64,000 bases of DNA from an uncultured Gammaproteobacteria bacterium (GTDB taxonomy: Bacteria; Patescibacteriota; Patescibacteriia; Magasanikbacterales; UBA922). The translations under genes were made by a program, and so were the position numbers. Where the stretch lies: NCBI GenBank assembly GCA_964345045.1, contig CAYFPM010000001.1, forward strand, positions 172,215 through 236,214. Direction: 5' to 3'. Within the stretch, counting starts at the first letter, position 1. Each line of letters begins with the position of its first letter. The notes below the pieces were generated by a model that was given only the letters and a program-made list of their open reading frames with translations, did no database searches and had not been told where the DNA came from. Positions 2,517 to 50,182 of this stretch are shown piece after piece.

Positions 2517-2987
2517 ATGAATAGACCAAGAAGACCAAGCCCAGAAGATATGGAAACCTGGGATGCTATATTAAAGAAAGAAGACCGTGGCATACTTACT
2601 CATAAAGAAGAAAGTATGGGAGTTAACTATGGAGCAGAAGGTGGTGATGCGGTGGTAGAAGAATCAACCAGCAAGATGGATAGAAGAATAGCTGAAAAGT
2701 TGAGAGAAGAGGGGGGAAATAATGAATTTGCTGGTTCTCCGGAAAATTATATTTTGCTGGAAGGGGCTGTTATTAATTTTGGTGAAATTTATGGATTTGC
2801 CAATTGCAAGCTTGGAGTTCATGAATCTTGTATTTCTTCTGATCCGTGTGTGGTTGTAAAAATTCCAGATGGGAAGAAATATCATTTTAATACTAGGAAA
2901 ATCAAAGGTTTTGACTCTTATACTTTTATAGAAAAAATGCAAGGATTAGGTTTTGATACTGTACCGGAAGATAAAATCCACGGCTGA
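2517..2987 (+). CDS. hypothetical protein (translationally coupled to recG)
   Basis: 156-aa ORF that starts 5 nt after the recG stop. Acidic N-terminus, no known motif. Confidence 0.45.
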   Translation: MNRPRRPSPEDMETWDAILKKEDRGILTHKEESMGVNYGAEGGDAVVEESTSKMDRRIAEKLREEGGNNEFAGSPENYILLEGAVINFGEIYGFANCKLGVHESCISSDPCVVVKIPDGKKYHFNTRKIKGFDSYTFIEKMQGLGFDTVPEDKIHG

Positions 2988-3041
2988 TTTTGCTTTGCAA
3001 AATTATTTTAGTTTGGTATGGTGGAGTAAAGGAGGCGACAA

Positions 3042-3485
3042 ATGCCAAAGAAAAAAGATCTGCCAAGTACAGAGGTTGACCATGCGGAAATCGCTCGCAA
3101 GAGGCTTTCTAGAGAAGATCCTCTTTGGGAGGGATATGTATTTTTGATCTATAAGGGGCAGCTGTGTGTTCACAGACCTCGGCATAGACCAGATCAATGC
3201 TATCCCCAAAAAGGTTGGTTGAGACTAGAAGTTAGACCAACTGGACATGCCGAAGTAAGGTGGACTCGCCCCGAAGATGTGGTGTTTTGGTTTCGGGATT
3301 TGACCGATCAGCTCACTGCGGGATTCCCACCAGAGCGTTTTCCAAACTGCAAAGTGATGTGGCGAGAGGTGGCAGCCGCGATCCAAGCAACCAAATCTAG
3401 TGACAACTACAGTGGACCTGTTACTGGAGCTGGTTTGGGGATGCCTCGTAGCTCTACCAGAGGTCGTCGCAACGGTGGTCGTTAG
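3042..3485 (+). CDS. hypothetical small basic protein (GC-enriched gene)
   Basis: Strong SD (AAGGAGG, 7 nt upstream of the ATG). 147 aa with an Arg/Gly-rich C-terminus. GC content is clearly above the flanks. Confidence 0.5.
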   Translation: MPKKKDLPSTEVDHAEIARKRLSREDPLWEGYVFLIYKGQLCVHRPRHRPDQCYPQKGWLRLEVRPTGHAEVRWTRPEDVVFWFRDLTDQLTAGFPPERFPNCKVMWREVAAAIQATKSSDNYSGPVTGAGLGMPRSSTRGRRNGGR

Positions 3486-3572
3486 CGTCTTTGAGAAACT
3501 ATAGATTTTTGCAACAGACGCTCCAAATTCAAATTTATTTTCTGTACCTTAGTGGTGCAGTTTTTTTATACT

Positions 3573-3601
3573 TGACAAAGACAATTTTTTGCTATATACT
3601 C
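3573..3601 (+). promoter_or_regulatory. Near-consensus sigma70-type promoter: TTGACA, 17-bp spacer, TATACT
   Basis: -35 TTGACA and -10 TATACT with a 17-bp spacer, read directly. About 55 nt upstream of the GC-rich ORF at 3656. Confidence 0.55.
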
Positions 3602-3655
3602 TTGCCAGCCAAAATCTCCAATTACTGGAGTGCGGCCGAAAGGAAACAATAAGAC

Positions 3656-3973
3656 TTGAGCAGCAAAGCAGCTGGAAAAATCAAGGGGCAGGGGACCTTG
3701 CTCCCGATCGTGTTCAAGCCGGTCGAGGGAGACGACCTCCAAGTCGGGTTCGTGGAGCCCAAGTGCGCCCCTACGAACGGGGTCTTCGAGGTCTTGGTTC
3801 GCAAGGGGCGTCGCGATGCAGAGCCGACGTTGATGAGTCTCGACAGCCTCACATTCCAACAGTTCGGACACATCGGGCTCGCCGGCTTCCGTCACGGTGG
3901 TGCCCATACCCCCCGGTGTGACCACAACAACGTCTTGGTCGATGCCCTCCACGGTAGCATGACCGCCAGTTAG
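3656..3973 (+). CDS. hypothetical protein encoded in a high-GC (GC3-rich) segment; TTG start
   Basis: Third-codon positions are almost all G/C in the + frame, which is the coding signature of a high-GC donor. Preceded by the consensus promoter and followed by two hairpins (3985-4030 and terminator 4045-4078). The antisense ORF 3566..3952 is less consistent with the GC3 pattern. Confidence 0.4.
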   Translation: MSSKAAGKIKGQGTLLPIVFKPVEGDDLQVGFVEPKCAPTNGVFEVLVRKGRRDAEPTLMSLDSLTFQQFGHIGLAGFRHGGAHTPRCDHNNVLVDALHGSMTAS

Positions 3974-4044
3974 CTCGAGTAGCCTCGCGTCCGCACAAAG
4001 GATCGTTCTACGATTTTGCGGACGCGAGCGCTTCCATCACAATC

Positions 4045-4078
4045 AAAAAATAAAACCCATAGAATGGGTTTTTTGTTT
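4045..4078. terminator. Bidirectional rho-independent terminator (AAAACCCAT-AGA-ATGGGTTTT, flanked by an A-run and a T-run)
   Basis: Perfect stem with A-run/T-run flanks. Serves the + GC-rich gene and radA (minus strand). Confidence 0.6.
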
Positions 4079-4092
4079 GGTTGAATAAAATT

Positions 4093-4169
4093 CCTCCCCT
4101 ACCAGGGGAGGCTAGGTGGGGTCAAATCGTACACCAGACCCCCTCCAGCTCCCCCTATTAGGGGGAGGG
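4093..4169. repeat. GC-rich modular hairpin repeat, copy 1 (hairpins CCTCCCCTACCAGGGGAGG and CTCCCCCTATTAGGGGGAG)
   Basis: Shares about 50 nt (GGGGGTCTGGnGTACGATTTGACCCCACCTAGCCTCCCCTGnTAGGGGAGG, as reverse complement) with 40813-40901. Its other module matches 20121-20187. Confidence 0.7.
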
Positions 4170-4177
4170 ATTATTTG

Positions 4178-5512: not shown

Positions 5513-5600
5513 ACTTAACTTTTTATATTGACTTTTGTTTATTATTTTGTTAGCTTAACTTTGCGGTGGTAATACCACTAGAAGATAGGAGAATCGAAGA

Positions 5601-5915
5601 ATGGAACATTGTGTTGCACCGAGAGAGACCGCCTATACCTGCCAAGGGTACTCTGGTGAATGCTACAGGTACACAAAGGTGGAGGAACGCGATTGCGACA
5701 ACCCTAGTTTGGTCATGTCTTTGACGCGCGCCAACGGAGCGGCTTTGCATAAGCCAGGCAAGAAAGAGGGGGATGAGCGTCAATGGGTGTACAACATCCA
5801 GATGCCTGGGAGAGAAGAACCAGAGCTCATGACTGAGGATCAGATAAAGAAAGTCTTCAAGCAAGAGCAAGTTCGAATTGCTCTAGCGGCAGATAAGGCT
5901 GCGAAGGACAAGTAA
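5601..5915 (+). CDS. hypothetical small protein (moderately GC-enriched)
   Basis: AGGAG about 12 nt upstream. 104 aa, Cys-rich N-terminus and Lys-rich C-terminus. A hairpin terminator lies downstream at 6009-6026. The antisense ORF 5550..5870 is an alternative reading. Confidence 0.35.
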   Translation: MEHCVAPRETAYTCQGYSGECYRYTKVEERDCDNPSLVMSLTRANGAALHKPGKKEGDERQWVYNIQMPGREEPELMTEDQIKKVFKQEQVRIALAADKAAKDK

Positions 5916-6033
5916 GAGAGCCTCTCGCTGATAGCTTTGCCAGCTCTAAAACGTCTTAGGTTTACTCACCACCGCACCCATCAATCATTAACAATTCTTG
6001 AAAAAGAAACCCGTCTAGCGACGGGTATTTATA

Positions 6034-7164
6034 TTATGAACAACTTTTTGACGGAAGTCCAGTCTCTTTGGTAATAGACGGCCGATTGGTACCGTATTCA
6101 AAATGCCAAAGTTCTGTAGAAAGTCTGCCAAATTTTTCGTCTGCTTGGTAAAAAGCATTGGCAAGGATAGTAGCATCCGATGGCAAAACTTTGTCACATT
6201 GGGTCTTGCCATTTACTTTTGGCCAAGCCCTTTCACCATCTTTTATAAGAACAGCATCTACAGCCCTACCATGCCCGTGACTAGAGTAGCCAGGTACTGC
6301 ATAAACCCTTTTTCTTTCTTTGGGGTCTGGATATTCATCTTTACCTTTGCCACACCAGAGAGATACTTGGCTTTCAAAAGATCTATGACTACCTACAATT
6401 TGCATGGCATAACCTTTGTTATGAAGTATTTCTCCGGCTTTGCAAATAGCCCTACCCATATCAGGAGTTACCTTGAACGTACCAATTACACCGCGTGGGC
6501 AGGTTTGGGTTCTTACATAAGCTTCGGGGATTACCCCAAGTTTGGGATAAGCCGCTCTTTTTTCTGGTTCGCAATCAAAAGCTTTTTCTCCCTCGGCTGT
6601 CCAAGTTGGTTTGGCAATATTTTCCGGAGAATAATTGGCATAGTCTACCAAATCATTTTCTGGCAAAACAAATTCTTTTTGTTCTACAAATAATATTCGC
6701 AAACTTCTAAATCTAACCAAGTCGGGGTTGATAGTATACAAAAGAACATAAGAGAGTAAGGCAATAGACAAACCAATAACTGCACCAGAGATTTGGCTTT
6801 TGGCTTTTTTGATATTTTCTTCTCGATCTCCAATTGGGAACATCCATAGCATGCCGGCAAAAAATATACCAATTACCGCCATAATGCTAACAACTACTAC
6901 CAAGTAGCGGTAGATTGTGCCGATATATTCGCTCAAAAAGGGAATATGCAGATAAGTTTCTCCGCCAGCTCCTTCTTCTATTTCCAAATCTTTGATATCG
7001 GTAAACTCTGTGCCTGGGATTTGGATTCTTGGTTGAGGTTTTTCCAAAATTTGTTGAATTTCGTCTATAGTTTGCTGAGCATTGGTTGGAATAGGCAACA
7101 AAAAGACAGTTCCCAAAAAAAGAGCCAAGATAAATATAAATATTTTTTTATTTAGTTTTTGCAT
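6034..7164 (-). CDS. membrane protein with a C-terminal peptidase M15 (VanY / D-Ala-D-Ala carboxypeptidase-like) domain
   Basis: N-terminal signal/TM, two internal TM helices, and a C-terminal VPGYSSHGHGRAVDAV segment that matches the LAS metallopeptidase SxHxxGxAxD zinc-binding motif. Confidence 0.55.
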   Translation of the reverse strand: MQKLNKKIFIFILALFLGTVFLLPIPTNAQQTIDEIQQILEKPQPRIQIPGTEFTDIKDLEIEEGAGGETYLHIPFLSEYIGTIYRYLVVVVSIMAVIGIFFAGMLWMFPIGDREENIKKAKSQISGAVIGLSIALLSYVLLYTINPDLVRFRSLRILFVEQKEFVLPENDLVDYANYSPENIAKPTWTAEGEKAFDCEPEKRAAYPKLGVIPEAYVRTQTCPRGVIGTFKVTPDMGRAICKAGEILHNKGYAMQIVGSHRSFESQVSLWCGKGKDEYPDPKERKRVYAVPGYSSHGHGRAVDAVLIKDGERAWPKVNGKTQCDKVLPSDATILANAFYQADEKFGRLSTELWHFEYGTNRPSITKETGLPSKSCS

Positions 7165-7167: not shown

Positions 7168-7809
7168 TTACAAACCTAGTAAGCCTGCCCAACCTTCTTT
7201 GGTTAAGTTTGGGGTTACTCTAGTATTTTTCAAAAAAGCTTCGGGGACAGCTTGGATTCCCAAATCTCTAGCCAAGGTTTCTACTTTGGCTTGGTATTCT
7301 TCGGCTTTGCCAGAATTTAGACAAGTTTGTAGAGCTGTACTGTCTAGGTTTATTATCGTGGCAATTGTTTCCATGGTTGGGGTATCTAGTCGTCCTTCGG
7401 TAGTATAAACAGCTTCTTCAAATTCGTCGTACTTGTCTTGCTGATTGGCACAATAAGCATAGATATGAGCTGTTTCCGATGGGTGTGGAAATTGAGTTAC
7501 TGATAAATTCTTTACAATAACTTTTAGTTTGTTTGGATTTTCTTTAATTATTTGTCTAAGAGTTTTTATTTGTTGTTGGCAGGCTTCGCAAGCTAGATCT
7601 TCGAAAACTACGACTGTGTTTATAGCATTTTTTTTGCCAAGCAAAGGATCTTCTTTGAAAATAGGTATAAATATTTCAGTAGGGGATTCTTTTTTTGGAT
7701 TTTGTTTTTCGTAAAGCGGTTCATACTGAGTTACTCGTATAAAAAAAACAAGCGAAACCAAAAAAATGGCTGGCAAAAAGACAAAGATTAAGTGTTTTGT
7801 TTTTATCAT
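7168..7809 (-). CDS. DsbA-like thiol-disulfide oxidoreductase (thioredoxin fold), membrane-anchored
   Basis: N-terminal TM helix. CEAC (CxxC) active-site motif in the context VVVFEDLACEAC. Confidence 0.5.
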   Translation of the reverse strand: MIKTKHLIFVFLPAIFLVSLVFFIRVTQYEPLYEKQNPKKESPTEIFIPIFKEDPLLGKKNAINTVVVFEDLACEACQQQIKTLRQIIKENPNKLKVIVKNLSVTQFPHPSETAHIYAYCANQQDKYDEFEEAVYTTEGRLDTPTMETIATIINLDSTALQTCLNSGKAEEYQAKVETLARDLGIQAVPEAFLKNTRVTPNLTKEGWAGLLGL

Positions 7810-9032
7810 AAGTTAACTTGGAAAATGCCGGTTCTGTTTTTGTCGGTAAAGCTAATATTTTTGCCATCGTCACTAACAAATATTTGATCGATAGTATGGG
7901 TTTCGTCCAATGGTAAAGCTGTTTTGGCGCCAGTTTGGGTATCTATACGATAAAGAATGTCTGGAGTTTGATCTGCCAAAATAGGTTGGAAACCAGACCC
8001 AACTTCTAATCTGGTTGGCACACCACAATATATATACCGGTCATCACTAAAATTACATTTGTCTGCCCAAGTATTTAGCTCTAGTGGTCTACGGTTATTG
8101 CCAATACTGCCCGGGACAGCATCTACAATCCAAAGTTGTGGTTTGAAATCATTGTTAGCGTTGTAAACACTATATAACAATTGTTTACCACTTTTTGACC
8201 ATTCTGTTTGGAGGCCTCTACCTTCTACTATTAGTCCTTTAAAATTTTCACCTTGGGTACCAATTGGTAAGATTTGTTGTCTGTCTCCACCCAAAGATTC
8301 ACCAGTTCTAGACAAAGCGACAATTTGTTTGTTTGGTGACCAATCCACAGTTACTTTGTCTTGGTTTTCTCCCAAATGTTCCAAAAATTTTACATTGTTG
8401 CCATCTGGATCCGAAGCAATAAGCCAACGATTTTCTGGAGAAAGACCGACACTCTTGGAAGCGATTTGAAATCCATCCGAAGAAAAAGAAAAGTCTTCCC
8501 AATGTTTTGGTAAGGTAACTTGGCGTTTGGTTGCAAAGTTATAATAAATATTGGAACCGTCTGGATATTCTATAATAGATTCATTATCATTTGGTGACCA
8601 AGTTACATTTTCTACATTAAAAAAAACTTCGTCTGACAAAATTTGGGCTTGACCATCTTCTACTCGATAAAATTTGCCATCGGATCGGTTGTAAAATTGG
8701 ACTTGTCCGCTGGCAGTAAAATCTGGAGAAGTGATAACAGAATCGACTAGTTGAGTTTCTCTTCCTACGGGTTGACTAGGAATAAAGCTTTGACCGGTAC
8801 CAACTTCTACACTAGGTGGAAGTACTTCTACACCAGGAGGTTCGACTCTACCTGGGACACCTTCTCCTGCGGCAGGAAATTCTACTCCGGGAGTGGGGGC
8901 TACCACTCCGGGGACACCAGGCTCTACAGGAGGAAGAGTTGGTCGAGCAAAAAATACTCTGTACAAAATATAGCCAATTCCAAATGAGACTAATAAAAAT
9001 CCAATTATTAGAAGTATTCTTTTTTTGTCCAT
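7806..9032 (-). CDS. membrane-anchored protein with a Pro-rich linker and a TolB-like (PD40/WD40-like) beta-propeller
   Basis: N-terminal TM helix, PGV-rich linker, repeated DG/SPDG beta-propeller blade motifs. Overlaps the downstream gene by 4 nt (operon). Confidence 0.45.
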   Translation of the reverse strand: MDKKRILLIIGFLLVSFGIGYILYRVFFARPTLPPVEPGVPGVVAPTPGVEFPAAGEGVPGRVEPPGVEVLPPSVEVGTGQSFIPSQPVGRETQLVDSVITSPDFTASGQVQFYNRSDGKFYRVEDGQAQILSDEVFFNVENVTWSPNDNESIIEYPDGSNIYYNFATKRQVTLPKHWEDFSFSSDGFQIASKSVGLSPENRWLIASDPDGNNVKFLEHLGENQDKVTVDWSPNKQIVALSRTGESLGGDRQQILPIGTQGENFKGLIVEGRGLQTEWSKSGKQLLYSVYNANNDFKPQLWIVDAVPGSIGNNRRPLELNTWADKCNFSDDRYIYCGVPTRLEVGSGFQPILADQTPDILYRIDTQTGAKTALPLDETHTIDQIFVSDDGKNISFTDKNRTGIFQVNL

Positions 9033-9035: not shown

Positions 9036-10490
9036 TTATTTATTTTTAGAACCTAGTCTAGCAACTTTGCGGTTGGCTAGTTTTTTTCCAGGGACTTTTT
9101 TTCTGGCAGAGCTAGCTTCGACAGCTTTTTTCAACATAGCCGAAGATTCTATCGCATCAAAAGCGTACATAGCAGCTATCAAAAAGATAGTATTGCTTAG
9201 AGCAAATACAATGGCTACCCAGTAAGGCCCGGCGGTCAAAGCTTTTTCTAGTAGGAGTTTAAAATCATCTTGAACATCTTTGTCTTGTCTTTTGTAAAAC
9301 CAAGCAGCTGCCAATATGGTTGGCAAAGTAGCTATGCCGGCGATAACAGGACCAATAACCGGGAAACCAATTGCTGGTATGGCTATTATATCACGGAATA
9401 CACAAAAGATTGAGAGGCTTGTAAAACCATCCAGTTCTCTAGCTTTTTTTCTTTTTTTTCGGGTAGCTTTTTCTTTTTCGGCTTCATCTTCGGCTTCTTC
9501 GGCTTTTCTTTGTCTTTTTTGTTTGCGGCGGTCTCTTTGTAGTTGTTCGGCTGCGGCTTTGTCTTTTTCTGGCGCCGTTGGTTCTTTTTCTTCTTCACCT
9601 TCTTCTTCGGTTGGGGCAGCTTCGGGTTCTGTTTCTTCTGGAGTTGGTTCTATAAAAGGTTTATAAGGTTTTTTTCCTTCTTCTTCCGGGATTTCCTCTC
9701 GAGGCTCAGCTTCTTCTGGTTCTTCTTCGGCTTCGGTTGGGACTTCGTCACTAGGTTCTTCCTCTTCTGGTTTTTCTTCCTCGACTGTGGTTGGGGCTTC
9801 ACCGCTAGGCTCAGCTTCTTCTGGTTCTTTTTTGTCTTCGGTAGGAACTTCGTCACTAGGTTCTTCTGGGAATTGTGTAAGAGGTTCTTCTTCTTTAGCC
9901 ACTGTTGGAATTTCTATACTAGGTTCGGCTGCAATTTCGGGTTCTTCTTTTGTAGGAGTGGGAGGGGCTGCTTCTTCTGGAGCTATTTCTTCTCCAACTT
10001 TTGTTGGGATTTCTTCGGTAGGTTCAACTGGTCCCTCCTCTTCTGCGGTTGGTATTTCAGCTTCTGGTTCAACTGGTGTAACTTCTTCCGTAGGTTCGGT
10101 TGCTTCTTCTATTTTAGGAGTTTCTGTTATTGGGGTTGGTTTGGCTGTTGGTGGGACTTCTGGTTCTTCTTTTTTTGGGATAGAAGGAGCTGCTTTGGGT
10201 GGCATTGGCGGTTCTTCGCCAAGTTCTTCGGGAAAGGCCAAATCAGGGGGAGCTGCGGTTGGTTTTTTTTCTTTGGTTTTTTCTTTTTCAACTACTTCGG
10301 TTTCAAATTCTAGATCTTTAAGTTCTTCTTCTATTTGTTTTTCCAAATCACTCTCAAGATTGGCTCCCAGTTGTTCTAGGGCTGCTTGGTCTTTGCGACG
10401 AGTTTCTCTTTTCTCTTTTTGCAGGCGCTCTGCTAATTCTTGCTCGTCTAATTCTTCATCATTTTTTTTCGCCAAAGAATTAGCGGCCAT
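9036..10490 (-). CDS. highly acidic E/P/K-rich repeat protein with C-terminal transmembrane helices
   Basis: 484 aa with reiterated EEPSDEVPTE / PEEAEP units. The DNA shows imperfect tandem repeats of about 96 bp around 9690-9880. The C-terminus carries 2-3 hydrophobic helices. Confidence 0.55.
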   Translation of the reverse strand: MAANSLAKKNDEELDEQELAERLQKEKRETRRKDQAALEQLGANLESDLEKQIEEELKDLEFETEVVEKEKTKEKKPTAAPPDLAFPEELGEEPPMPPKAAPSIPKKEEPEVPPTAKPTPITETPKIEEATEPTEEVTPVEPEAEIPTAEEEGPVEPTEEIPTKVGEEIAPEEAAPPTPTKEEPEIAAEPSIEIPTVAKEEEPLTQFPEEPSDEVPTEDKKEPEEAEPSGEAPTTVEEEKPEEEEPSDEVPTEAEEEPEEAEPREEIPEEEGKKPYKPFIEPTPEETEPEAAPTEEEGEEEKEPTAPEKDKAAAEQLQRDRRKQKRQRKAEEAEDEAEKEKATRKKRKKARELDGFTSLSIFCVFRDIIAIPAIGFPVIGPVIAGIATLPTILAAAWFYKRQDKDVQDDFKLLLEKALTAGPYWVAIVFALSNTIFLIAAMYAFDAIESSAMLKKAVEASSARKKVPGKKLANRKVARLGSKNK

Positions 10491-17775: not shown

Positions 17776-18783
17776 TTATAAAAATAAATTAAACAAATAA
17801 CCGATTAATAAAACTTGAGGAACAGTAATAATTGGCAGCCAAATAGCTGTACGTTTGCCGATGTTGGTCCAGATTAATCCGATCTCTGTGTAGTCTGTTA
17901 CTGCCCCAGCCATAAGGAATACAAAAGGGTTCCCAAGTGAACCAACTTGTTTATAAATTTCAAAGGCTATTGGAGAACTACCTTCGCTACAGATTTCTAT
18001 AATGGTAGCTACAACAAGGGTCAAGAGCAATCCCCAAAAACTTGCATTGAGGTAATGTACAAATACATGGCCTGGTACATAGGCTTGGATAAATACTGCT
18101 GCCAAAAAACCAATTAGAATCCACCACAAAACCATGTTTGAAAGGCTGACTGTGCCGGCTAGCACACCATGCAAACTTTGTTTAAAATTAAAGTTTTTAA
18201 ATCTTTCCCAGTTATATTTTTCTTGCAAATTAATATTTAAACTACTTTCTACAAGTTTTAATTTTTCTAGCAAAGTAAAAGTAAACCCAGTTATAACCGC
18301 AACTAGCATGGCTGCCAAAATAAAGTAGACAGCTCCCCATCCAAAAAAGCTAAAAAGTAAAATAGTAACAGGTAGATTGGCCCAGGGGGATGCAAGTAGA
18401 AATGTAATAATGGCTGGAATGCTGGCGCCTTTTTTGTAGAGTTGAATAGAAATTGCCAGTATTCCGTGCGAGCAGGCAGAGAGCAAGAATCCAGCGATAA
18501 CTGCAAAAAGGATTGAGCTTTTTTTCTTTTGTCCTAGGTATTTGTAAATAAATTGATCGGGAACAAAGTAATCGATAATGCCACCAAAAAACAGACCTAG
18601 CAAAACTGCCCACCAAATTAGTTTGGCGTAGCTAAGAAAACTTTGGTTTAAGTTTTCTAGACCGGGTATAAATGAAACTGCAAATAGAATAATAAATATT
18701 AAGCTAGTAATTTTTAACTTTTTGCCCAGCTTTATTTTTGGCTGTCTTTTTGTGTTTGGGTTGTGGCAGCTATGATTCTCCAT
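17776..18783 (-). CDS. putative permease (UPF0718/DUF318-like, two repeated CS-x-G...P half-domains)
   Basis: SACSHGILAIS...IPAIITFL and CSEGSSPIAFEIY repeats within a polytopic membrane protein. Confidence 0.45.
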   Translation of the reverse strand: MENHSCHNPNTKRQPKIKLGKKLKITSLIFIILFAVSFIPGLENLNQSFLSYAKLIWWAVLLGLFFGGIIDYFVPDQFIYKYLGQKKKSSILFAVIAGFLLSACSHGILAISIQLYKKGASIPAIITFLLASPWANLPVTILLFSFFGWGAVYFILAAMLVAVITGFTFTLLEKLKLVESSLNINLQEKYNWERFKNFNFKQSLHGVLAGTVSLSNMVLWWILIGFLAAVFIQAYVPGHVFVHYLNASFWGLLLTLVVATIIEICSEGSSPIAFEIYKQVGSLGNPFVFLMAGAVTDYTEIGLIWTNIGKRTAIWLPIITVPQVLLIGYLFNLFL

Positions 18784-18870
18784 AGTTGTCGTAGTTCTCG
18801 TTCATTAATTGACTAGAATGTTTTTATGTCCATCTATTTTATCACAATTTGGCTTTATTATTGACATTTT

Positions 18871-19227
18871 TTGTTTTTTCATTTAGTTTCGATAGTGGAG
18901 GTGTCCATGGACAATTTGCAAAAACTCATCAGTGGTTTTGAGCGAGATGTACGCTATCCGATGCATACTCTGCGAGCCGAAGTGGGGAGGTCTACAGCTT
19001 CTCAGCAGATTCAAAAGATGGGGACAGCGGCCTTTGCGGCGATTGCCGAGCACTTGGCAGCAATCCCTCCTGGAGATCGTGATTCAAATCTATGCGAAGC
19101 TTGGATCCTGTTGTTGTGTTGGATGGGGCAGGATCTGAATATCGCTAGAGAAGATATGCCAAATGGTATCACTCACCAGTTTACCGACGATTGGATCGAG
19201 TGGGCTCGTAGCAACGCAGCCAACTAA
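18871..19227 (+). CDS. hypothetical protein (GC-rich island gene; the true start may be the internal Met at 18907)
   Basis: GC3-rich frame. A hairpin terminator follows at 19284-19316. Confidence 0.4.
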   Translation: MFFHLVSIVEVSMDNLQKLISGFERDVRYPMHTLRAEVGRSTASQQIQKMGTAAFAAIAEHLAAIPPGDRDSNLCEAWILLLCWMGQDLNIAREDMPNGITHQFTDDWIEWARSNAAN

Positions 19228-19407
19228 GGGGATTCCCGTAGCTACAATTCTTTTACCGGCAAGAGAGGCTCGGGAAAATTCAAAAACAGCTTTTCGTAAA
19301 GGCTGTTTTTGTTTGGTATAATTAAAAAGTTAGCCACAGCTCCCCCTTGACAAAAAGGGGAGAATATATTAACAATAAGTTAGGCGTAAAGCCAAAAGGA
19401 GTCGTTC

Positions 19408-19929
19408 GTGAACTGGGAAAATTTTGTCGCAAACTTTGCGAGTCTTTCTATCTTCGCAGGGGTTGTGGCAGTATTGCTTGTAGGTTTGGTCTATTGGGCC
19501 AATACCAACAGCAAAATCTCGTTCACAAAATCTCGGTTGCCCGATGTGGGGAGACCGGGAGACCCCAGCGGTTTTATCATGAGCTCTTGTCGAGCTCCGC
19601 CCGAGCCGATCGAGCTACCCTCTCGGCTACCATCATTCAACCAGCCAAAGCCTGGGCCGGTATTGGTGGTGCGGGGTGTACCTGCGGATCCTGTCCCAGT
19701 ATATCCGACTGAGGACGAGCCAATTACTCTAGAGGTGGATAATAGCCTTGGTGATCCCAACCAAGACAACAGGGATCACACTTTCCGCCCCGGACCAGCG
19801 ACTGGTTCGGTAGAGCTGGTGCACTGCCCCGAACATGGCGATGTAGGTATCATTGCCATAGGGAAATCGGTGGTCTGCCCTGGTTGCAGATCTCGTATTC
19901 CTGTCCCGGGCAAGCAGAAGTCCGCCTGA
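19408..19929 (+). CDS. hypothetical membrane-anchored Pro-rich protein with a C-terminal Cys4 cluster
   Basis: N-terminal TM helix, proline-rich middle, CPEHG...CPGCRSR zinc-ribbon-like C-terminus. GC-rich. A terminator follows at 19988-20021. Confidence 0.4.
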   Translation: MNWENFVANFASLSIFAGVVAVLLVGLVYWANTNSKISFTKSRLPDVGRPGDPSGFIMSSCRAPPEPIELPSRLPSFNQPKPGPVLVVRGVPADPVPVYPTEDEPITLEVDNSLGDPNQDNRDHTFRPGPATGSVELVHCPEHGDVGIIAIGKSVVCPGCRSRIPVPGKQKSA

Positions 19930-20120
19930 CTTCTTTCTAACAGAAAATCCGACGCTAATTGAAATGTGGCGCGTCGGAAAAATTCAAAAGCAACCTAAAG
20001 ATAGGTTGCTTTTGATTTTTAGATTTTACAAAAGTCGATATGTGAGATTGCCACCCTTCGACTTCACTCAGGGCAGGCTCGGACACAACGATTCTAGCAA
20101 TGATAGTAAAGAGAGGTTGT

Positions 20121-20187
20121 CTACTCCCAGACCCCCTCCCCGATGCTTCGATCGGGGCAGGCCAGCTCCCCCTAATAGGGGGAGAGT
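20121..20187. repeat. GC-rich modular hairpin repeat, copy 2
   Basis: Contains CCCCGATGCTTCGATCGGGG and CTCCCCCTAATAGGGGGAG hairpins. The module GCCTGCCCCGATCGAAGCATCGGGGAGGGGGTCTGG is shared (reverse complement) with 40813-40901. Confidence 0.7.
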
Positions 20188-20301
20188 TTTATATGCTACT
20201 ATTGACATATTGGCTAGATTATGGTAATTTTGTTAGTCGCTAAGGTTTGTTTTTTGGCTGCGTTTTTTGCGGCCACCTTGTGACTTTTTTGGAGGTTAAC
20301 T

Positions 20302-20682
20302 ATGCTTTTGGCAAGATGCCAGGCAGAGCTATGGGTACTCTATTCCAAAATAGAGTATCTGGAAAGAGAATTCGCAGCTGAATATAACACTGGCTGCAGT
20401 GGACTCGACCTAATCGTCCCTTTTTTGGAAACAGAAGTCCTTTCCCCCAAGAAACCTGTCTGGCAGAAGGAAGAGGCTCTAGAGAGGCTGAAAAAGTCTT
20501 GTAAAGATCTAGAGGCCTTGGAAAGACAGCTTCTACGGGATCATCCGCAAGCTCGTTTCGAGAAACTTCGTTTCCTCGATGAGCAGTTGAGACTTATGGA
20601 CGAAGGTGAAGAGAAACACGAGCTACGCCTAAGTCATGCCCGAATGACCACCAAGCTCGCAGAATTAAGAAGAGCTGCTTGA
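20302..20682 (+). CDS. hypothetical coiled-coil protein (GC-rich island gene)
   Basis: 126 aa, Glu/Arg/Leu-rich heptad-like sequence. GC3 is elevated. Confidence 0.35.
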   Translation: MLLARCQAELWVLYSKIEYLEREFAAEYNTGCSGLDLIVPFLETEVLSPKKPVWQKEEALERLKKSCKDLEALERQLLRDHPQARFEKLRFLDEQLRLMDEGEEKHELRLSHARMTTKLAELRRAA

Positions 20683-20791
20683 GTGGACTACCTCCCCTCG
20701 CTTTCGACCCCGCCACCACAGGCTGGGTCGGAGCAACAATCAAAAAATAAACAATCCTGCACCATTTTGGTGCAGGGTTTTTTGTTTTGGG

Positions 20792-21757: not shown

Positions 21758-22330
21758 TTAATTTTTCTTCCTGGCTCTACGAGTCATATACGCCTCTATA
21801 AGTTGACTCGCAATAACTCCTAGAATTAAGGCGAGTAGGTAGAGGCCGAGTAGGATAAAAAATGACTGGGGCAAGAAGCGCTTCATCATGGCTATACCAA
21901 AGGCAGTGTACCAAGAGACAAAAGATATGCCACCCAGGCCAAAGGCTAGTTTGTGCCATTTGCGGCCCATCTTCTTATGGTGCTCCATATTTAGGTGTAG
22001 CAGATACGGGGCGACAAAGGCGTGGAGCAGGCCGCCGTTTACAGCCAGCACCACCACGACTATCATTTTGACAGCAAAGGCTGGGGAGGCGTTGTAGCTA
22101 GCGGTGCTAGACAGGTAGATTCCGGCTCCGGTAACTACTACGGCAATAAGGGATCCAAGGATAACGTTTTTTAAGATATGCAAAACTTCTTGCTCTTTTT
22201 TTGATATTCGAAAGTCTTTGAGAAAGCGGAAGAAGAGTATATCCGAGATGGTAGCACCACCAAGGCCAATGGCCATGGCGAGGATGTGGAGGGTGAGGAT
22301 TTGGGGGAAAAGGGATTGTAGAGAGGGCAT
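21758..22330 (-). CDS. membrane protein, hypothetical
   Basis: 190 aa, 5 predicted TM helices. Confidence 0.45.
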   Translation of the reverse strand: MPSLQSLFPQILTLHILAMAIGLGGATISDILFFRFLKDFRISKKEQEVLHILKNVILGSLIAVVVTGAGIYLSSTASYNASPAFAVKMIVVVVLAVNGGLLHAFVAPYLLHLNMEHHKKMGRKWHKLAFGLGGISFVSWYTAFGIAMMKRFLPQSFFILLGLYLLALILGVIASQLIEAYMTRRARKKN

Positions 22331-22402
22331 AGGTTATTCGAAGTATAAAGGAGTCTTTAGTATAGGCCATAGCGTCTACTGACGCAAAGGAGAGAGTCCT
22401 AC

Positions 22403-22600
22403 ATGGCATTGAGAAATCGAGGAAGCGACGGGGTTGGCTACCAGCACGTGAACGTCAACAATGGTGGCTACACGAGCGTGGTCGTCCACGATGATGGGAG
22501 GGTGACCTCCTCGGGCTACGAGGTCCGCGACGAGCGGGTCGCCGAGCAGGCCAGGCGGGAGGCCGCCAAGGACAACGGCAAGGGCCGCCGCAGAGGCTGA
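22403..22600 (+). CDS. tiny GC-rich hypothetical protein (65 aa, Gly-rich)
   Basis: AAGGAG SD 9 nt upstream. Third positions almost all G/C. A perfect 15-bp-stem terminator follows immediately. Confidence 0.35.
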   Translation: MALRNRGSDGVGYQHVNVNNGGYTSVVVHDDGRVTSSGYEVRDERVAEQARREAAKDNGKGRRRG

Positions 22601-22604
22601 TCTG

Positions 22605-22656
22605 GGGGCCGGGTCGACGTACAACGTCGACCCGGCCCCATTCAATTATTTTTTAG
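22605..22656 (+). terminator. Strong hairpin terminator (GGGGCCGGGTCGACGT-ACAA-CGTCGACCCGGCCCC, then a T-run)
   Basis: Perfect 15-bp GC stem read directly from the sequence. Confidence 0.55.
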
Positions 22657-22869
22657 AAGTGCAGTGAGACTGTGCTTTTTTATTTATAAATTTTTTGATA
22701 AATAATATGATTCTATCAATAGTTTTGTGAATGATTCTGTAAAGTAGAAAAAGTAAGGATAAATAGAAAAAAATTATAGAGTTTAAAAATATTTGTAGAT
22801 TATCGTTATATTTTGCAATAAAGTATATGACGGCGCCTATATTTGCTACTAGTAATAGTAATGAGGGTA

Positions 22870-23124: not shown

Positions 23125-23571
23125 TCATTTAATCCTAATTATTGCACCCTTGGGTATTTCTCTCAAGTCGTAGTTAAATCCTTGCCATCCTTTTCGTTTT
23201 GCTGTTGGTGAGAGGGGATTTCTTGGTTTGAACATTTCGGGGACTTGGAGATCGGCAGAGAGATAATAGATAGAACTATTTTTGCCGTTTACTAGCACTA
23301 TATAAAGGGGGAAATATATTCCAGCATCCATGCGTTTTTTTTGGGGAGCCCAGGCTGCCCCCAAAATTGTAGAGGGTAATTGTTCTATATTGGAAACGTT
23401 TTTGGTTTTTACTTGAGCTACATACCCACAAAAATCGCATACCAAATCTGCGCATTTGAAATTGGTTGGCAAGGCTTTTAGGGTTTTACCTTTTTTACAC
23501 TTTGGGCAGACGCAATGCCTGGCAACGAATTTTTCTCCTTGGGTACCGAGTTTTTGTTTTTCGGTGGGCAT
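23125..23571 (-). CDS. PD-(D/E)xK-type nuclease-like protein (Hjc/YraN-like core) with an inserted CxxC...CxxC zinc ribbon
   Basis: GTQGEKFVARH (the G..GE..A motif of the YraN/Hjc family), a CPKC...CDFC zinc ribbon, ADLVCDF...AQVKT as a D...(E/Q)xK catalytic-motif candidate. 148 aa. Confidence 0.4.
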   Translation of the reverse strand: MPTEKQKLGTQGEKFVARHCVCPKCKKGKTLKALPTNFKCADLVCDFCGYVAQVKTKNVSNIEQLPSTILGAAWAPQKKRMDAGIYFPLYIVLVNGKNSSIYYLSADLQVPEMFKPRNPLSPTAKRKGWQGFNYDLREIPKGAIIRIK

Positions 23572-23633
23572 AATGAGGGCTTAACTTTTATTTATATAAC
23601 CAATGCCGGCTAGGTGGAAGAGGGTGCTTTTTT

Positions 23634-25913
23634 TCATATATTTGTAGAATTATTTGAAATGGAAACCATTTCATCGTAGTGTTTTTTATCTAAGTTTTCA
23701 ACAATTTCAAAAATGTTGCTTATAATATTATCTGATTCACCTATTAAATTATTTTCTGAATTTTCATAATCTTCTAGGGGCAAGTGGGAGTATTTATTAA
23801 TAAATCTATATATTTTCTCTTCAATATCTACATCAAGATCAACAGAGTTAATTAAAGCTCTGAAATCGTTTCTTTTTTTAGGGAATTTAAAACTCAAAAA
23901 AGATTCCAACAGTTTTCTGCTCAGGTTTGCAACTTGAAAAGATTTTTCTAAATCCAGTGTTTCGTAATTATTAAAAGAATAAAGTTTTGAAAAAACAAAA
24001 TGGTATTCTGAATTGTATAGGAGTAGTGTTTCCGGGATATTTTTAATAGCGGATTCTCTTGGTGTTTTTGGTAGAATATCGATTTGAAAAAAACTAGATT
24101 TTATATCACTTTTTTTATTTTTTCCTTTAAACCAATCTCTTATTAATCTGAAGAATGTAAAGTTATGAGTTAGCACAAAAAGTTGTTTTGCATTTTCTAG
24201 ATCAGCCTTTATGTATGAATATGCACTAAATAAATTATTAGAATCAAAACTTGATATTGGGTCATCAATTATAACTATTTCATTTTGAATTTGAGATTTT
24301 TCTTTTAGTTTTATTAAAAAGAAAATAAAAGCTATCGCAGTTTTTTCACCTTCACTCAAATTTTTTGCTTTCTTTTCATGGTGTGGCCTGTACACTTCAT
24401 AACCTTTGAGTTGTGGATTAAATTTAAGTTCAATTTCACTATGACTAATAAATTTTGCTAAATTTTTATTGAATTCCTCAGCACCTAGTTCTTCATTTGA
24501 AAGATCTGCTGTCAAATCAAAAATTGTTTTTGATAGAGCATTAATTTCTTCAACTAAAGTTTCTGAGTCCAATCTTGCCTTATTAATATCGTCTAATTGT
24601 TTAAGAAATAAAATGTCCTTTTCAAATTCAGTAGCGTAATGTAACTCCAACTTCTTTTGATTTTTTTTGTATTCCTCATCAAAATTTTTCCAGCTATTAT
24701 TGTGGGAAGATATTGTTTTTTCCAGGATCTCTTTTTTCTCATTGTATTTATCTAAAAAATTTTCTTTGATTTCTTTTTTCAAACCGAGAGGTTTTGAAGG
24801 ATTTTTAAATTTTTCTTCTAAAAGGACTTTCCATTCTTTAAAGAAAATATTTAATTCTTCTATTTCAATATCAAATTGTATCTTTGCATCTAAGAAATCT
24901 CTCTGAAATTCTTTGTAAAAAAGTTCTTTTTCTATCTTTATTTCTTCTTGAATAAGATTAGTTTGAATCCACATTTTTTCCTCTTCAATTCTATTGCGTA
25001 ATTTTTCTAGTTCATCACTAAAATGTTCTTTAAGTTTTTTGATGTGTGCTAGATCAATTTCGTTACCGCAAAATTCACATTTTTGGTCACTATATTTTTC
25101 ATGTATTTTTAGTCCTTTTTCTACCCATTCAGAAATATCTGAATTTTCTTTTAGACGCTCTATTATGCCAACCGATAAATCAAATTCGAGTATTTTTTTA
25201 ACCTTGACTTCCACTTGTCTTAAGGCGTTTAAATCCATTTTTTTGAGTGTATAATCAATGACATCTTTTTCATTCGGTCTAACTCTGTCTATTAGATTCA
25301 ATAATTCTGTTTCATTCAATTTGCCGCTACCTTTCTTAATTTCCTCTTGATTATCTAGAATAAAATTTTTAAATTTTGTTCTGTCATAGTTAAAGTAAGT
25401 TTTGTCTTCAGGTGAAATTGATTGAAAACTATTTTTAATTTCACTAGCTTTTTTTGAAAGTTCTTTTTTTATTTTATCACCGGTTTCTTTAATATATTTG
25501 TTTAGTGTAGCTAGTTTTTTGTTCTTTTCCTCATTTATTTTCTTGTTTGCATCAAGTTTGTTTTTTTCGTCTATTTTTTTAGCTGAAATAAGAAGAATAC
25601 TTTCAATTTTATTGTCCCAATCAATGTTTTCTTTAACGTATTCTTCGTTAAATACATTTATATTTTCTAGTTCTATTAAATCTAATTGGGTCAGGGTGTC
25701 ATTATCTATTTGAATTTTATACTCTACGTTTTCAAATTCACTTGGTAGGCTTCTTTCTTTATGCAAACTATTAAAAAATTTTGACAAGGTGGTCTTTCCA
25801 CACCCATTCCATCCATAGAAAAGATTAAATTTGGAGAATTTATTTAACCTAACATCTGCATTATAATTTGAAAATATCCCTAGATTTTTTAGTTGTTTTA
25901 TTTTGTATATCAT
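23634..25913 (-). CDS. RloC/PrrC-like AAA_13 ABC ATPase with a coiled-coil zinc hook and a C-terminal anticodon-nuclease-like motif
   Basis: N-terminal Walker A FYGWNGCGKTT, long Lys/Glu-rich coiled coil containing KCEFCGNE (CxxC hook), signature LSEGEKTAIAFIFFL, Walker B IVIIDDPISSFD, H-loop VLTHN, and a C-terminal LSRKLLESF...KYSHLP segment that fits the PrrC/RloC ACNase Arg-x3-Glu...His triad. About 25% GC. Confidence 0.55.
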   Translation of the reverse strand: MIYKIKQLKNLGIFSNYNADVRLNKFSKFNLFYGWNGCGKTTLSKFFNSLHKERSLPSEFENVEYKIQIDNDTLTQLDLIELENINVFNEEYVKENIDWDNKIESILLISAKKIDEKNKLDANKKINEEKNKKLATLNKYIKETGDKIKKELSKKASEIKNSFQSISPEDKTYFNYDRTKFKNFILDNQEEIKKGSGKLNETELLNLIDRVRPNEKDVIDYTLKKMDLNALRQVEVKVKKILEFDLSVGIIERLKENSDISEWVEKGLKIHEKYSDQKCEFCGNEIDLAHIKKLKEHFSDELEKLRNRIEEEKMWIQTNLIQEEIKIEKELFYKEFQRDFLDAKIQFDIEIEELNIFFKEWKVLLEEKFKNPSKPLGLKKEIKENFLDKYNEKKEILEKTISSHNNSWKNFDEEYKKNQKKLELHYATEFEKDILFLKQLDDINKARLDSETLVEEINALSKTIFDLTADLSNEELGAEEFNKNLAKFISHSEIELKFNPQLKGYEVYRPHHEKKAKNLSEGEKTAIAFIFFLIKLKEKSQIQNEIVIIDDPISSFDSNNLFSAYSYIKADLENAKQLFVLTHNFTFFRLIRDWFKGKNKKSDIKSSFFQIDILPKTPRESAIKNIPETLLLYNSEYHFVFSKLYSFNNYETLDLEKSFQVANLSRKLLESFLSFKFPKKRNDFRALINSVDLDVDIEEKIYRFINKYSHLPLEDYENSENNLIGESDNIISNIFEIVENLDKKHYDEMVSISNNSTNI

Positions 25914-40812: not shown

Positions 40813-40901
40813 GAGGGGGAGCAGGCCTGCCCCGATCGAAGCATCGGGGAGGGGGTCTGGAGTACGATTTGACCCCACCTAGCCTCCCCTGATAGGGGAG
40901 G
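40813..40901. repeat. GC-rich modular hairpin repeat, copy 3 (longest; contains both shared modules)
   Basis: GAGGGGGAGCAGGCCTGCCCCGATCGAAGCATCGGGGAGGGGGTCTGGAGTACGATTTGACCCCACCTAGCCTCCCCTGATAGGGGAGG matches copies 1 and 2 piecewise. Confidence 0.7.
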
Positions 40902-40950
40902 AAATTGATTTAAAGATTTTTCCTTTGCCTCGTAATGACAATTTTAAAAA

Positions 40951-47595: not shown

Positions 47596-47710
47596 CCTGA
47601 CGAAGCGGCCCAGTGTTGGGCAGCGGAACTCCACCCCCGCGGAGTGGTAGTTGCGGGTCTTCAGTGCGTATCGGCGCGAGAGGTTCGCTGGTATGCAGGA
47701 GGTCCGTGAC

Positions 47711-50135: not shown

Positions 50136-50182
50136 GTTGTCTCCTTGTGCTTGGGGTCGACCGTGCAGCCGACCAATGACAG

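Follow-up and report, generated by a model that had tools for sequence, protein, structure and literature searches.

The GC-rich segment at positions 3040-4080 of the analysed DNA (a stretch of 64 kb, hereafter called the window) consists of two unrelated things: an orphan ORF (o147) at the end of the recG operon, and a unit (3572-4078) between recG and the convergent radA, which was predicted to form an autonomous single-gene transcription unit. The gene of this unit, o105, is a real protein-coding gene. The best explanation overall, with a probability of about 0.72, is that the orphan o147 lies next to an autonomous, position-locked slot-gene unit, which is exchanged whole and whose GC content is a maintained property of the locus. 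The initial annotation had attributed four GC-rich segments in the window to repeated small acquisitions from one high-GC donor pool, or to dispersal by one mechanism; the four segments are not a single phenomenon.

GC-rich segments and the anatomy of unit 3572-4078

Host genes of the window had GC contents of 0.36-0.42 and GC3 values of 0.20-0.46, and windowed GC bore out a sharp elevation in all four segments. Maxima were 0.54 in segment 5580-5950, 0.63 in segment 18870-20700 (with dips at every terminator) and 0.75 in segment 22330-22660. Segment 3040-4080 had two peaks (100-nt windows), of 0.54 at 3250-3499 and 0.63 at 3700-3899, and was divided into two units by an AT-rich trough (GC 0.29) at 3500-3599. 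The earlier description of the ORFs as GC3-biased held for o105 (.77) and o65 (.82), and to a moderate degree for o104 (.57), o173 (.54) and o118 (.50), but not for o126 (.45) or o147 (GC1/2/3 of.58/.51/.42, respectively); the GC of o147 thus results from amino-acid content (codon positions 1 and 2) and not from synonymous sites. The proposed likeness in composition to the high-GC element at 43-56 kb was found in the synonymous codons of o105 and o65 (log-likelihood ratio per codon for island-like usage +0.49 and +0.52, respectively) but in none of the other segment ORFs, with o147, o118, o126 and o173 showing host-like or intermediate codon usage.

The features are listed in Table 1. The recG operon continues into o156 (GC3 of.25, host-like), for which a homologue was found behind recG in a relative (L083; 32% identity, E 1e-16), and then into o147, which begins with an ATG preceded by a Shine-Dalgarno sequence (AAAGGAGG). 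No family match was obtained for o147, nor a detectable homologue in any fetched locus; it would represent a lineage-specific orphan ORF, into which transcription would read from recG-o156 before stopping at the terminator upstream of the o105 promoter.

Table 1. Coordinates of features in and around the GC-rich segments of the window.
Feature	Position	Strand	Description
o156	2517..2987	+	Small recG-operon gene; start 4 nt past recG stop; called in source contig
o147	3042..3485	+	Orphan ORF, final gene of recG-o156-o147 operon; predicted by gene callers
Intrinsic terminator	3542..3560	+	Closes recG operon; stem-loop CTGTACC...GGTGCAG then TTTTTTT
Sigma-70 promoter of slot gene	3572..3600	+	Near-consensus, TTGACA-17-TATACT; 11/12 positions match
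5' leader (predicted)	3607..3655	+	Transcription start putative
o105 (slot gene)	3656..3973	+	105-aa CDS, TTG start; annotated in no assembly
Long GC-rich 3' hairpin	3981..4033 (about)	+	Predicted fold; conserved in L162
Bidirectional intrinsic terminator	4052..4072	.	AAAACCCAT-AGA-ATGGGTTTT, T-runs on both strands; common to slot gene and radA
REP/BIME-like multi-hairpin repeat, copy 1 of 3	4081..4172	.	GC-rich
o104	5601..5915	+	Segment 2; orphan ORF between radA and VanY-like gene; called; GC3.57
o106/o118	18907..19227	+	Segment 3 unit a; orphan ORF; terminator 19281-19311
o173	19408..19929	+	Segment 3 unit b; orphan ORF; promoter-like site 19347-19376; terminator 19984-20015
REP-like hairpin repeat, copy 2	20127..20189	.	
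o126	20302..20682	+	Segment 3 unit c; orphan ORF; terminator 20753-20779
o65	22403..22600	+	Segment 4; orphan ORF; 16-bp hairpin 22605-22639; terminator 22655-22679; called in ENA, Logan
REP-like repeat, third copy	40814-40913		

The self-contained promoter-ORF-hairpin-terminator arrangement first described for unit 3572-4078 proved correct: the TTG-start ORF, the hairpin and the terminator were all found, the ORF is truly coding, and the promoter is present one base from where it was originally placed. Promoter-like sites as a whole were not enriched in the window (9 found versus 7.0 ± 2.3 in shuffles), and this promoter is credible because of its conservation, with a TTGAC-N17-TAnnnT motif match at the equivalent site in nine relatives. 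It would start a leader of about 50 nt, the opening of which (AGCCAAA) is common to the window and to a related Patescibacteria contig, L162. An SD-like AAAGGA lies 11 nt upstream of the TTG codon, which would initiate a soluble protein of 105 residues. The long GC-rich hairpin after the stop codon may protect the 3' end of the RNA or act as an auxiliary terminator; its arms are CCTCGCGTCCGC/GCGGACGCGAG in the window, and L162 has CTCGCGTTCGCG/CGCGAACGCGAG, in which the changes are paired. Another relative, L002, has an analogous long hairpin. The transcript would end at the bidirectional terminator shared with radA.

The remaining segments contain distinct orphan genes (o104, o118, o173, o126 and o65), and each of these has a terminator of its own. 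No family match was found for o104, nor a counterpart in any relative examined, the equivalent gap there being at most 130 bp. The o106/o118 ORF, also without a family match, is present in its 106-aa form (from the ATG at 18907) in NCBI, ENA and Logan, and o173 encodes an N-terminal hydrophobic helix and a C-terminal CxxC...CxxC, as read from the sequence. The Gly-rich ORF of 65 codons noted earlier was recovered as o65 (10 Gly, Shine-Dalgarno AAAGGAGAG, GC1/2/3 of.65/.48/.82, periodicity reached by 0 of 5000 shuffles), followed by a 16-bp hairpin and a second terminator. An ORF called in ENA, o87 (19964-20227), extends over both a terminator and a REP-like repeat and appears to be spurious. 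Segments 3 and 4 do not lie between housekeeping genes, as had been stated, since their neighbours are accessory (DUF1697, SnoaL, a DpnI-like gene and AAA_13), and the accessory stretch that holds them is missing from the sole comparable relative (L163). Given this accessory setting, and the lack of counterparts of o104 and o147, acquisition may have occurred at these places. Sequence searches of Pfam, PHROGs, PADLOC, NCBIfam and PDB with all cassette proteins and slot-family members found no family, and no known RNAs were found in the four segments (Rfam at gathering and relaxed thresholds; ARAGORN).

A small-protein gene between recG and radA

The GC1/2/3 values of o105 (.62/.43/.77, respectively) form a periodicity that was reached by 0 of 5000 shuffles. 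A k-mer-limited first homology search gave no match; in an exhaustive HMMER search of 1.84 billion proteins, P0017 alone was recovered as a homologue (E 3e-5, 34% identity over 90 residues). Matches to P0018-P0020 were rejected, these being repeat proteins (ankyrin/lipocalin, Big_1 and a tandem repeat) with scores summed over many short stretches. Identity between o105 and the P0017 gene was.50/.62/.35 at the three codon positions, and tblastx between the two loci found conservation in the o105 frame only (E 3e-8). The product of o105 was missing from the protein collection whichever start was tried, and standard gene callers overlooked the gene owing to an unusual composition and a TTG start; the start of P0017 was mis-set by gene callers. 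The locus thus provides a conserved protein gene that standard gene callers miss.

GC-rich intergenic regions of AT-rich genomes often encode structured non-coding RNA, and several properties of 3600-4080 would suit such an RNA with an incidental ORF: its own promoter and terminator, the weak SD and TTG start, the omission by gene callers, a whole-transcript folding z of -4.6, the 3' hairpin conserved with paired changes, and a folding z of -7.5 for the coding region of L162. This reading was nevertheless rejected, and is highly improbable, on account of the strong codon periodicity of o105, a conservation that tracks codon positions in one frame only, and coding regions that fold no more stably than shuffles (z about 0) in seven of eight slot-family members; AGGAGG and ATG starts in relatives, a dN/dS of about 0.17 and the absence of any Rfam match at gathering or relaxed thresholds also argue against it. 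Just as improbable is the idea that the ORFs do not code and stay open by chance, in DNA that is GC-rich and hence poor in stop codons. On both strands 3566-3973 is indeed crossed by three overlapping ORFs longer than 80 aa, o87 is apparently spurious, and the periodicity of o118 and o173 is weak (reached by 693 and 451 of 5000 shuffles, respectively), but for o105 chance is excluded by periodicity, the P0017 orthologue, frame conservation and dN/dS, while o65 and o126 are strongly periodic (0 and 1 of 5000) and each ORF is followed by a terminator of its own.

The P0017 gene lies between recG and radA on L162 (recG-> X <-radA), the RadA and RecG of which are 69% and 66% identical to those of the window, respectively. 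Directly past the recG stop its slot has TTGACA-17-TATAAT; the transcript would begin with the same AGCCAAA, the ORF opens with TTG, and the hairpin is homologous to that of the window. Genes on the recG strand were found in the recG/radA gap (the slot) in the window and in L162, L004, L005, L006, L088, L166, L167 and L168, giving homologues of o105 in this slot in at least eight other fetched contigs. All family members examined sit in the slot and have their own TTGAC-N17-TAnnnT promoter and their own terminator (as motif matches), and canonical AGGAGG and ATG starts occur in relatives. The o105/P0017 pair was connected to the other members (the A5 family) through the L162 protein, which aligned to that of L006 with a Smith-Waterman z of 9.0 (a score equalled by 0 of 400 shuffles); reciprocal HMM searches gave top-ranked yet marginal matches, the joint alignment A8 contained invariant G, R and F residues, and the AlphaFold2 (AF2) models were alike in topology. 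Compared directly with the A5 profile, o105 gave a non-significant result (hhalign probability 0.4-2.3%, Smith-Waterman z 0.5-2.4), and because of this marginal score its membership of the slot family is by transitivity via L162 only. On these comparisons, o105 is the window allele in a family of uncharacterised small proteins from Magasanikbacteria-like Patescibacteria.

The slot family has a dN/dS of 0.16-0.17, against 0.04-0.06 for radA, and is under purifying selection within an allele type, yet the allele types are very deep. The contig of a second strain (L165) shows a single SNP relative to the window over 1829 nt, too little variation for selection analysis. The AF2 model of one family protein (P0008) has five strands and four helices (pLDDT 79), and that of o105 has four strands and a low-confidence helical tail (mean pLDDT 57); the models predict a core of four to five beta strands followed by a helical C-terminus, which may be the fold of the family. 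The top Foldseek matches of the strand core were Hfq, the DriD WYL domain, Tudor domains and the eIF5A N-terminus, all non-significant (E of 0.3 or more). In its predicted four to five strands the core may resemble small beta-barrels of the SH3-like, Sm, Tudor and WYL kinds, and it has no sequence motif in common with them; the likeness is a lead and not a classification. It is a doubtful guess that the product might be a small beta-barrel that binds nucleic acid or protein and is under diversifying selection.

Exchange of the unit and origin of its GC content

Allele replacement with sharp breakpoints was shown in relatives of the window. L005 and L167 have RecG and RadA proteins that are 96% and 93% identical, respectively, and flanking DNA that is 97-100% identical, whereas their slot proteins share 25% identity only; between a point about 100 nt upstream of the recG stop and the radA stop, DNA identity is down to 30-50%. 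With the allele of L006, which is more distant, that of L167 shares 76% identity. The whole unit, from promoter to terminator, would be exchanged by recombination in the conserved recG and radA ends, which would make it a swappable cassette at a fixed address. Swapping was seen in relatives and not for the window allele, because 72% was the highest RadA identity among the relatives found; a metagenome scan with RadA returned nothing above 66%. The word 'cassette' of the initial annotation is thus apt for a whole unit exchanged between near-identical genomes with sharp breakpoints, but not in the sense of a strain-specific import. In L166 and L167 another variable stretch of high GC, located upstream of recG, turned out to be tRNA-Arg with a duplicated tRNA 3' end, and holds no protein cassette.

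That unit 3572-4078 was imported into this strain from a high-GC donor is contradicted by the same-slot homologues in at least eight contigs and by the promoter, which is conserved throughout; the result that the initial annotation had named as counting against acquisition (GC-rich segments at the same position in relatives) was largely obtained for this unit. In ten of ten genomes the GC3 of the slot gene exceeded that of its own radA (by +0.12 to +0.43, the window value being +0.43), so the GC content is not a donor fingerprint. AAG and GAG are used over the AAA and GAA of the host, and C- and G-ending codons are favoured. At third codon positions the window and L162 agree in about 35% of cases, which means that synonymous sites are saturated and that a donor signature should have decayed. 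Mainly synonymous, the high GC of the slot gene is a maintained property of the locus and does not mark a recent donor of high GC. Spill-over of GC-biased gene conversion from a recombination hotspot was tested for as a GC3 gradient in radA toward the slot, and none was found (averages of 0.36 in the proximal 50 codons of slot-bearing genomes and 0.34 in controls), though such spill-over may still have occurred.

One donor pool (as for the 43-56 kb element), or one mechanism, is an improbable source of all four segments. In its favour, the synonymous codon usage of o105 and o65 is island-like; the window does contain a high-GC integrative element (43-56 kb, encoding a large serine recombinase, a primase and a TrwB/FtsK-like ATPase); for o104 the relatives examined offer no counterpart, and for o147 the fetched loci no homologue; the accessory stretch of segments 3 and 4 is missing from L163; and REP-like GC-rich repeats adjoin two segments. 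The main unit, however, is GC-rich and in the same position in relatives, and no sequence similarity was seen among the four segments or between them and the element (local tblastx, blastn against the window). Their proteins have no phage or plasmid relatives (tblastn) and no PHROGs or PADLOC matches, codon usage is heterogeneous (host-like or intermediate in o147, o118, o126 and o173), and synonymous sites do not account for the GC of o147. No shared or flanking direct repeats were detected at the borders in a repeat scan, no tRNA in the window and no integrase beside the segments, the only recombinase seen being at 54346-55995.

It is likewise unlikely that the recG/radA gap is an insertion hotspot for unrelated small genes in different lineages, with o105 as one independent arrival, and not a diverged allele of an ancestral gene. 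Slot identity is certainly uncorrelated with RadA identity (Spearman 0.10), and slot content is patchy: the slot is empty in some relatives with 60-66% RadA identity (L008, L009, L082 and L087), holds an MPG glycosylase in more distant ones, and carries GC-rich ORFs without significant similarity in L002 (the closest by RadA, 72%) and L085, besides the A5 and o105 types. Because of such empty, MPG-bearing or unrecognisable slots, independent gain at a hotspot may have occurred in some lineages. Compared directly, the window protein and A5 are also only weakly similar, but against this stand the significant bridge from L162 to L006 (z 9.0), the motifs in common across the joint alignment, the one promoter type, orientation and spacing beside the recG stop in all units, and the predicted topologies, which appear alike.

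Comparison with known systems

The repeats of Table 1 resemble REP/BIME elements in being short modular GC-rich hairpins that are intergenic, near terminators and in both orientations; they differ in numbering three copies only and in being absent from the loci of the relatives. An integron cassette consists of a promoterless ORF and a shared attC-like site, with IntI nearby, whereas the slot unit has its own promoter, the hairpins behind o105 and o65 are unrelated in sequence, and no tyrosine integrase was found among the ORFs scanned, which covered part of the window.

Horizontally acquired islets share with o105 a local anomaly in GC and codon usage beside host-like genes. In contrast to such islets, which are absent from the orthologous position (as holds for o104 and o147 in the fetched loci), the slot gene is present at that position in L162 and others, its anomaly persists where synonymous sites are saturated, and its borders lack mobility genes and att-like repeats. 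Anomalous GC and codon usage, on which claims of recent horizontal transfer usually rest, can be inherited stably as a property of a locus; here the anomaly persists in ten genomes with saturated synonymous sites. Like taxonomically restricted orphan genes, members of the slot family are short, without family annotation, fast-evolving and limited to one clade. Species-specific orphan genes in a survey of human-gut microbiome species closely match the GC and GC3 of their own genome (PMC11293555); the slot family differs from these, lying 0.12-0.43 above the genome in GC3 in ten genomes.

As a compact, well-delimited case in which a whole allele unit is replaced among Patescibacteria genomes that are otherwise near-identical, the slot is testable, and gives a handle on recombination, diversifying selection and possibly symbiont-host or symbiont-phage specificity in an uncultured group. 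Hypervariable single-locus allele-replacement sites between conserved genes are known elsewhere, for example the streptococcal comC pherotype alleles and fungal idiomorphs. The slot is similar to these in its fixed address between conserved genes with sharp breakpoints, in its deep allele types (25% identity) within flanks that are 97-100% identical, and in a distribution of alleles at odds with the phylogeny of the flanks. It differs in that the unit has no partner gene (receptor, toxin or immunity), its product looks cytoplasmic (100-150 aa), and all alleles are GC-enriched relative to the genome. A more speculative reading, which we consider rather unlikely, is that the slot might be a balanced-polymorphism locus of Patescibacteria for a small beta-barrel specificity factor (in self/non-self discrimination, anti-phage defence or host interaction, for example), in which very old, mutually exclusive allele types are shuffled among strains by recombination and synonymous GC is actively kept high, possibly through effects on translation rate, RNA lifetime or escape from an AT-directed nuclease or silencer. 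If true, the candidate phyla radiation would gain its first described idiomorph-like locus, which would also be a case of locus-specific selection on base composition.

Anatomy and coding status of the unit between recG and radA

The GC-rich segment at 3040-4080 is a small-protein locus that is enriched in GC, locked to its position and swapped by recombination. The initial annotation, which had suggested that this segment and three others were small cassettes acquired from one high-GC donor pool or dispersed by one mechanism, was largely right in what it observed; its interpretation held for the anatomy but not for the origin of this main example. Elevated GC content was found in all four segments (3040-4080, 5580-5950, 18870-20700 and 22330-22660), none of which contains a tRNA or an Rfam family. 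The first had been described as carrying a promoter, ORF, hairpin and terminator; such a unit is present, but an AT-rich trough with a terminator (3500-3599, GC 0.29) divides the segment into two parts. The left part holds o147 (147 aa), which lacks a promoter of its own and has its GC rise in codon positions 1 and 2 (.58/.51/.42 by position); no homologue of it turned up in the fetched loci. A homologue of the neighboring o156 (156 aa) is present in one relative (L083).

Positions of features in the GC-rich segments and the integrative element (window coordinates)
Feature	Position	Context
o147	3042-3485	left part of segment 1; downstream of recG and o156
Terminator	3542-3560	within AT-rich trough
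Promoter TTGACA-17-TATACT	3572-3600	immediately after terminator 3542-3560
o105 (TTG ORF)	3656-3973	GC by codon position.62/.43/.77
Long hairpin	about 3981-4033	downstream of o105
Bidirectional terminator	4052-4072	end of slot unit
o104	5601-5915	segment 2
OLD/AbiEii-type ATPase with DUF4435	43728-45344	integrative element
SprT-like protein	49202-49867	integrative element
DnaG-type primase	50183-51277	integrative element
TrwB/FtsK-like ATPase	51498-52847	integrative element
Large serine recombinase	54346-55995	integrative element

The gene callers placed no gene in 3486-4177 of the source contig, and o105 (105 aa) is missing in any version from a collection of 15 billion proteins. Its three-base GC periodicity is extreme (reached by none of 5000 shuffles). 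A k-mer-limited homology search gave no match, and an exhaustive HMMER search gave four hits, three of them spurious (repeat proteins scored over many short stretches). The remaining protein, P0017, is 34% identical to o105 across 90 residues (E 3e-5). Its gene occupies the recG-radA gap of a JGI contig (L162) whose wider gene order also agrees with that of the window (RadA and RecG 69% and 66% identical, respectively). There, TTGACA-17-TATAAT follows the recG stop, the predicted transcript start is AGCCAAA as in the window, and the true start codon is likewise TTG, preceded by the Shine-Dalgarno motif AGGAG; after the stop codon come a hairpin, whose arms are homologous to those in the window and carry paired substitutions, and then a terminator. 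When aligned by codon, the two genes had identities of.50/.62/.35 at the three positions; the only frame that tblastx detected between the window and L162 was that of o105. Together, the periodicity, the same-slot orthologue, the conserved signals and the frame-specific conservation indicate that o105 is a real, conserved, unannotated protein gene, which bears out the proposed TTG-start GC-rich ORF (coding by periodicity and orthologue) with its promoter, hairpin and terminator.

Slot content and allele replacement among relatives

The convergent arrangement of recG and radA is kept among relatives, and the content of the gap (the slot) is variable. It measures 6-75 bp in some genomes, is occupied by a methylpurine DNA glycosylase (PF02245, E 3e-66) in L010-L013, L017, L018 and L104 (RadA identity 52-57%), and holds a GC-rich unit in L002, L004, L005, L006, L085 and L088. 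All six units carry a TTGAC-N17-TAnnnT promoter, an ATG start preceded by a Shine-Dalgarno sequence, and a terminator; their ORFs comprise 97-152 codons with GC3 of 0.64-0.90. The ORFs of L004, L005, L006 and L088 constitute one family, in which the L002 and L085 proteins were not placed; a profile search with it gave nine members, all from Patescibacteria and none with a Pfam domain, and those looked up were all located in the slot. In L007, an 851-bp gap (7348-8204, GC 0.55 versus 0.44) with a longest recG-strand open frame of 76 aa may represent a slot gene in decay, or a feature of another kind.

Against the family profile, o105 gave marginal scores only. The alignment of its L162 orthologue with the L006 protein scored z 9.0, which none of 400 shuffles equalled; common features of the joint alignment are an NG turn, an Arg, a (V/T)F(R/Q/K) strand and, at the C-terminus, a His. 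AlphaFold models of o105 and the family suggest the same order of elements, four to five strands and then helices (mean pLDDT 57 and 79, respectively). We consider o105 to be a diverged allele of the slot family, with a probability of about 0.7. By eye, neither a signal peptide nor a membrane helix is evident in the slot proteins, which are soluble and range from neutral to basic. Foldseek matched them only weakly to barrels of the SH3-like type (Hfq, the WYL domain of DriD, Tudor domains, eIF5A; E 0.3 or higher). As a best guess, albeit a doubtful one, they would be small barrels that bind nucleic acid or protein and evolve under diversifying selection.

Slot identity does not follow RadA identity across genomes (Spearman 0.10). 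L005 and L167 have 96% identical RecG, 93% identical RadA and 97-100% identical flanking DNA, whereas identity between their slot proteins is 25%; at the DNA level it drops to 30-50% over the stretch that starts about 100 nt before recG ends and runs through the radA stop, and then recovers. With the more distant L006, the L167 allele shares 76% identity, and between these two the slot DNA (75-92%) is closer than the flanks (70-80%). Such identity patterns argue that the entire promoter-to-terminator unit is exchanged via recombination in conserved flanks. "Cassette" was a fair word, but the donors are relatives with another allele type rather than a foreign high-GC pool. Within an allele type, the slot genes are under purifying selection, as dN/dS is 0.16-0.17 (versus 0.04-0.06 for radA).

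Two further observations concern the neighborhood. In the protein encoded upstream of radA, which corresponds to the T4SS-pilin/VanY protein of the window (6034-7164), the C-terminal two-thirds is hypervariable between L166 (5907-6912) and L167 (~33% DNA identity in genomes otherwise 85-93% identical). Upstream of recG, L166 (1492-1780) and L162 (2422-2560) carry a tRNA-Arg(GCG), then a short GC-rich insert, then the tRNA 3' end once more. This arrangement looks like what site-specific integration leaves behind, and L167 lacks the insert.

Other GC-rich segments, repeats and genomic background

A common high-GC donor or mechanism was not borne out, as the segments share no link with each other or with the 43-56 kb island. 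No relative examined has a counterpart of o104, the radA-to-upstream-gene gap there being at most 130 bp. Segment 3 is made up of three distinct units, each an ORF with its terminator, and a REP-like repeat between them; the 65-aa ORF (o65) was as described, with Shine-Dalgarno sequence and hairpin (16-bp stem). Segments 3 and 4 reside among accessory genes (DUF1697, SnoaL, DpnI-like gene, AAA_13); in a relative whose permease is 74% identical, a conserved gene 120 bp upstream of that permease takes the place of this stretch. Proteins of segments 2-4 and o147 had no match in family libraries, phages, plasmids or the island, and among their genes island-like codon usage was seen in o65 only. 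Their ORFs may stem from acquisition, local emergence or rapid divergence, and nothing connects one to another. Base composition of the accessory region deviates both ways because of a low-GC gene pair (23125-25913, minus strand, GC 0.26-0.41), a 759-aa AAA_13 ATPase and a DpnI-like protein, which looks like a defence islet. The ArsP_1/YraQ-type permease (17776-18783, minus strand) has many closest source-named homologues labelled DPANN archaea (Woesearchaeota, Nanoarchaeota; 64-69% identity), which suggests that ultra-small archaea and bacteria have exchanged genes.

Intergenic terminator regions (4081-4172, 20127-20189, 40814-40913) contain a GC-rich repeat of several hairpins, built from the modules CCTCCCCT..AGGGGAGG, GGGGTC..GACCCC, CCCCGAT..ATCGGGG and CTCCCCCT..AGGGGGAG. 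It resembles REP/BIME elements, and a 13-mer from it was present in none of 165 loci of other genomes. An 87-aa ORF (19964-20227, plus strand), called in one ENA assembly, overlaps a terminator and the REP-like repeat and is probably spurious.

The window belongs to a Patescibacteria genome that resembles Candidatus Magasanikbacteria. A 116.9 kb ENA metagenome contig encodes an exact match to its RadA, and the small ORFs are also found on an NCBI contig of 621 kb; the RadA-nearest species representatives (60-72% identity) are labelled Magasanikbacteria or Patescibacteria. Genes outside the 43.3-56.0 kb block have GC of 0.36-0.42 and GC3 of 0.20-0.46, and the block itself (43300-56000, GC 0.55-0.68) is an integrative element. 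The sole Rfam match in the window reaching the gathering score was a LOOT RNA (RF03000; 60227-60355, minus strand; 78 bits, E 5e-13). Extreme AT skew (-0.5 to -0.64) was seen at 9450-10300, within a 484-aa ORF (9036-10490, minus strand) that contains degenerate repeats of 27-114 nt and has no Pfam match.

GC enrichment of the slot genes

In 10 of 10 cases, GC3 was 0.12-0.43 higher in the slot gene than in the radA next to it, with C3 and G3 both raised and AAG/GAG in place of the host's AAA/GAA. Since synonymous sites are saturated between the window and L162 (35% identity), any donor signature should have decayed, and we infer that the GC3 bias must be maintained. No GC3 gradient in radA toward the slot was found. 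Coding-region folding was no better than in codon-shuffled controls in seven of eight family members (z about 0); in the o105 orthologue (L162 6121-6435), z was -7.5 against synonymous-codon shuffles. The slot locus belongs among hypervariable, taxonomically restricted loci. Its GC enrichment is atypical, because orphan genes surveyed in the human gut microbiome closely resemble their own genome in GC and GC3 (PMC11293555), whereas the GC3 of slot genes exceeds that of the adjacent radA.
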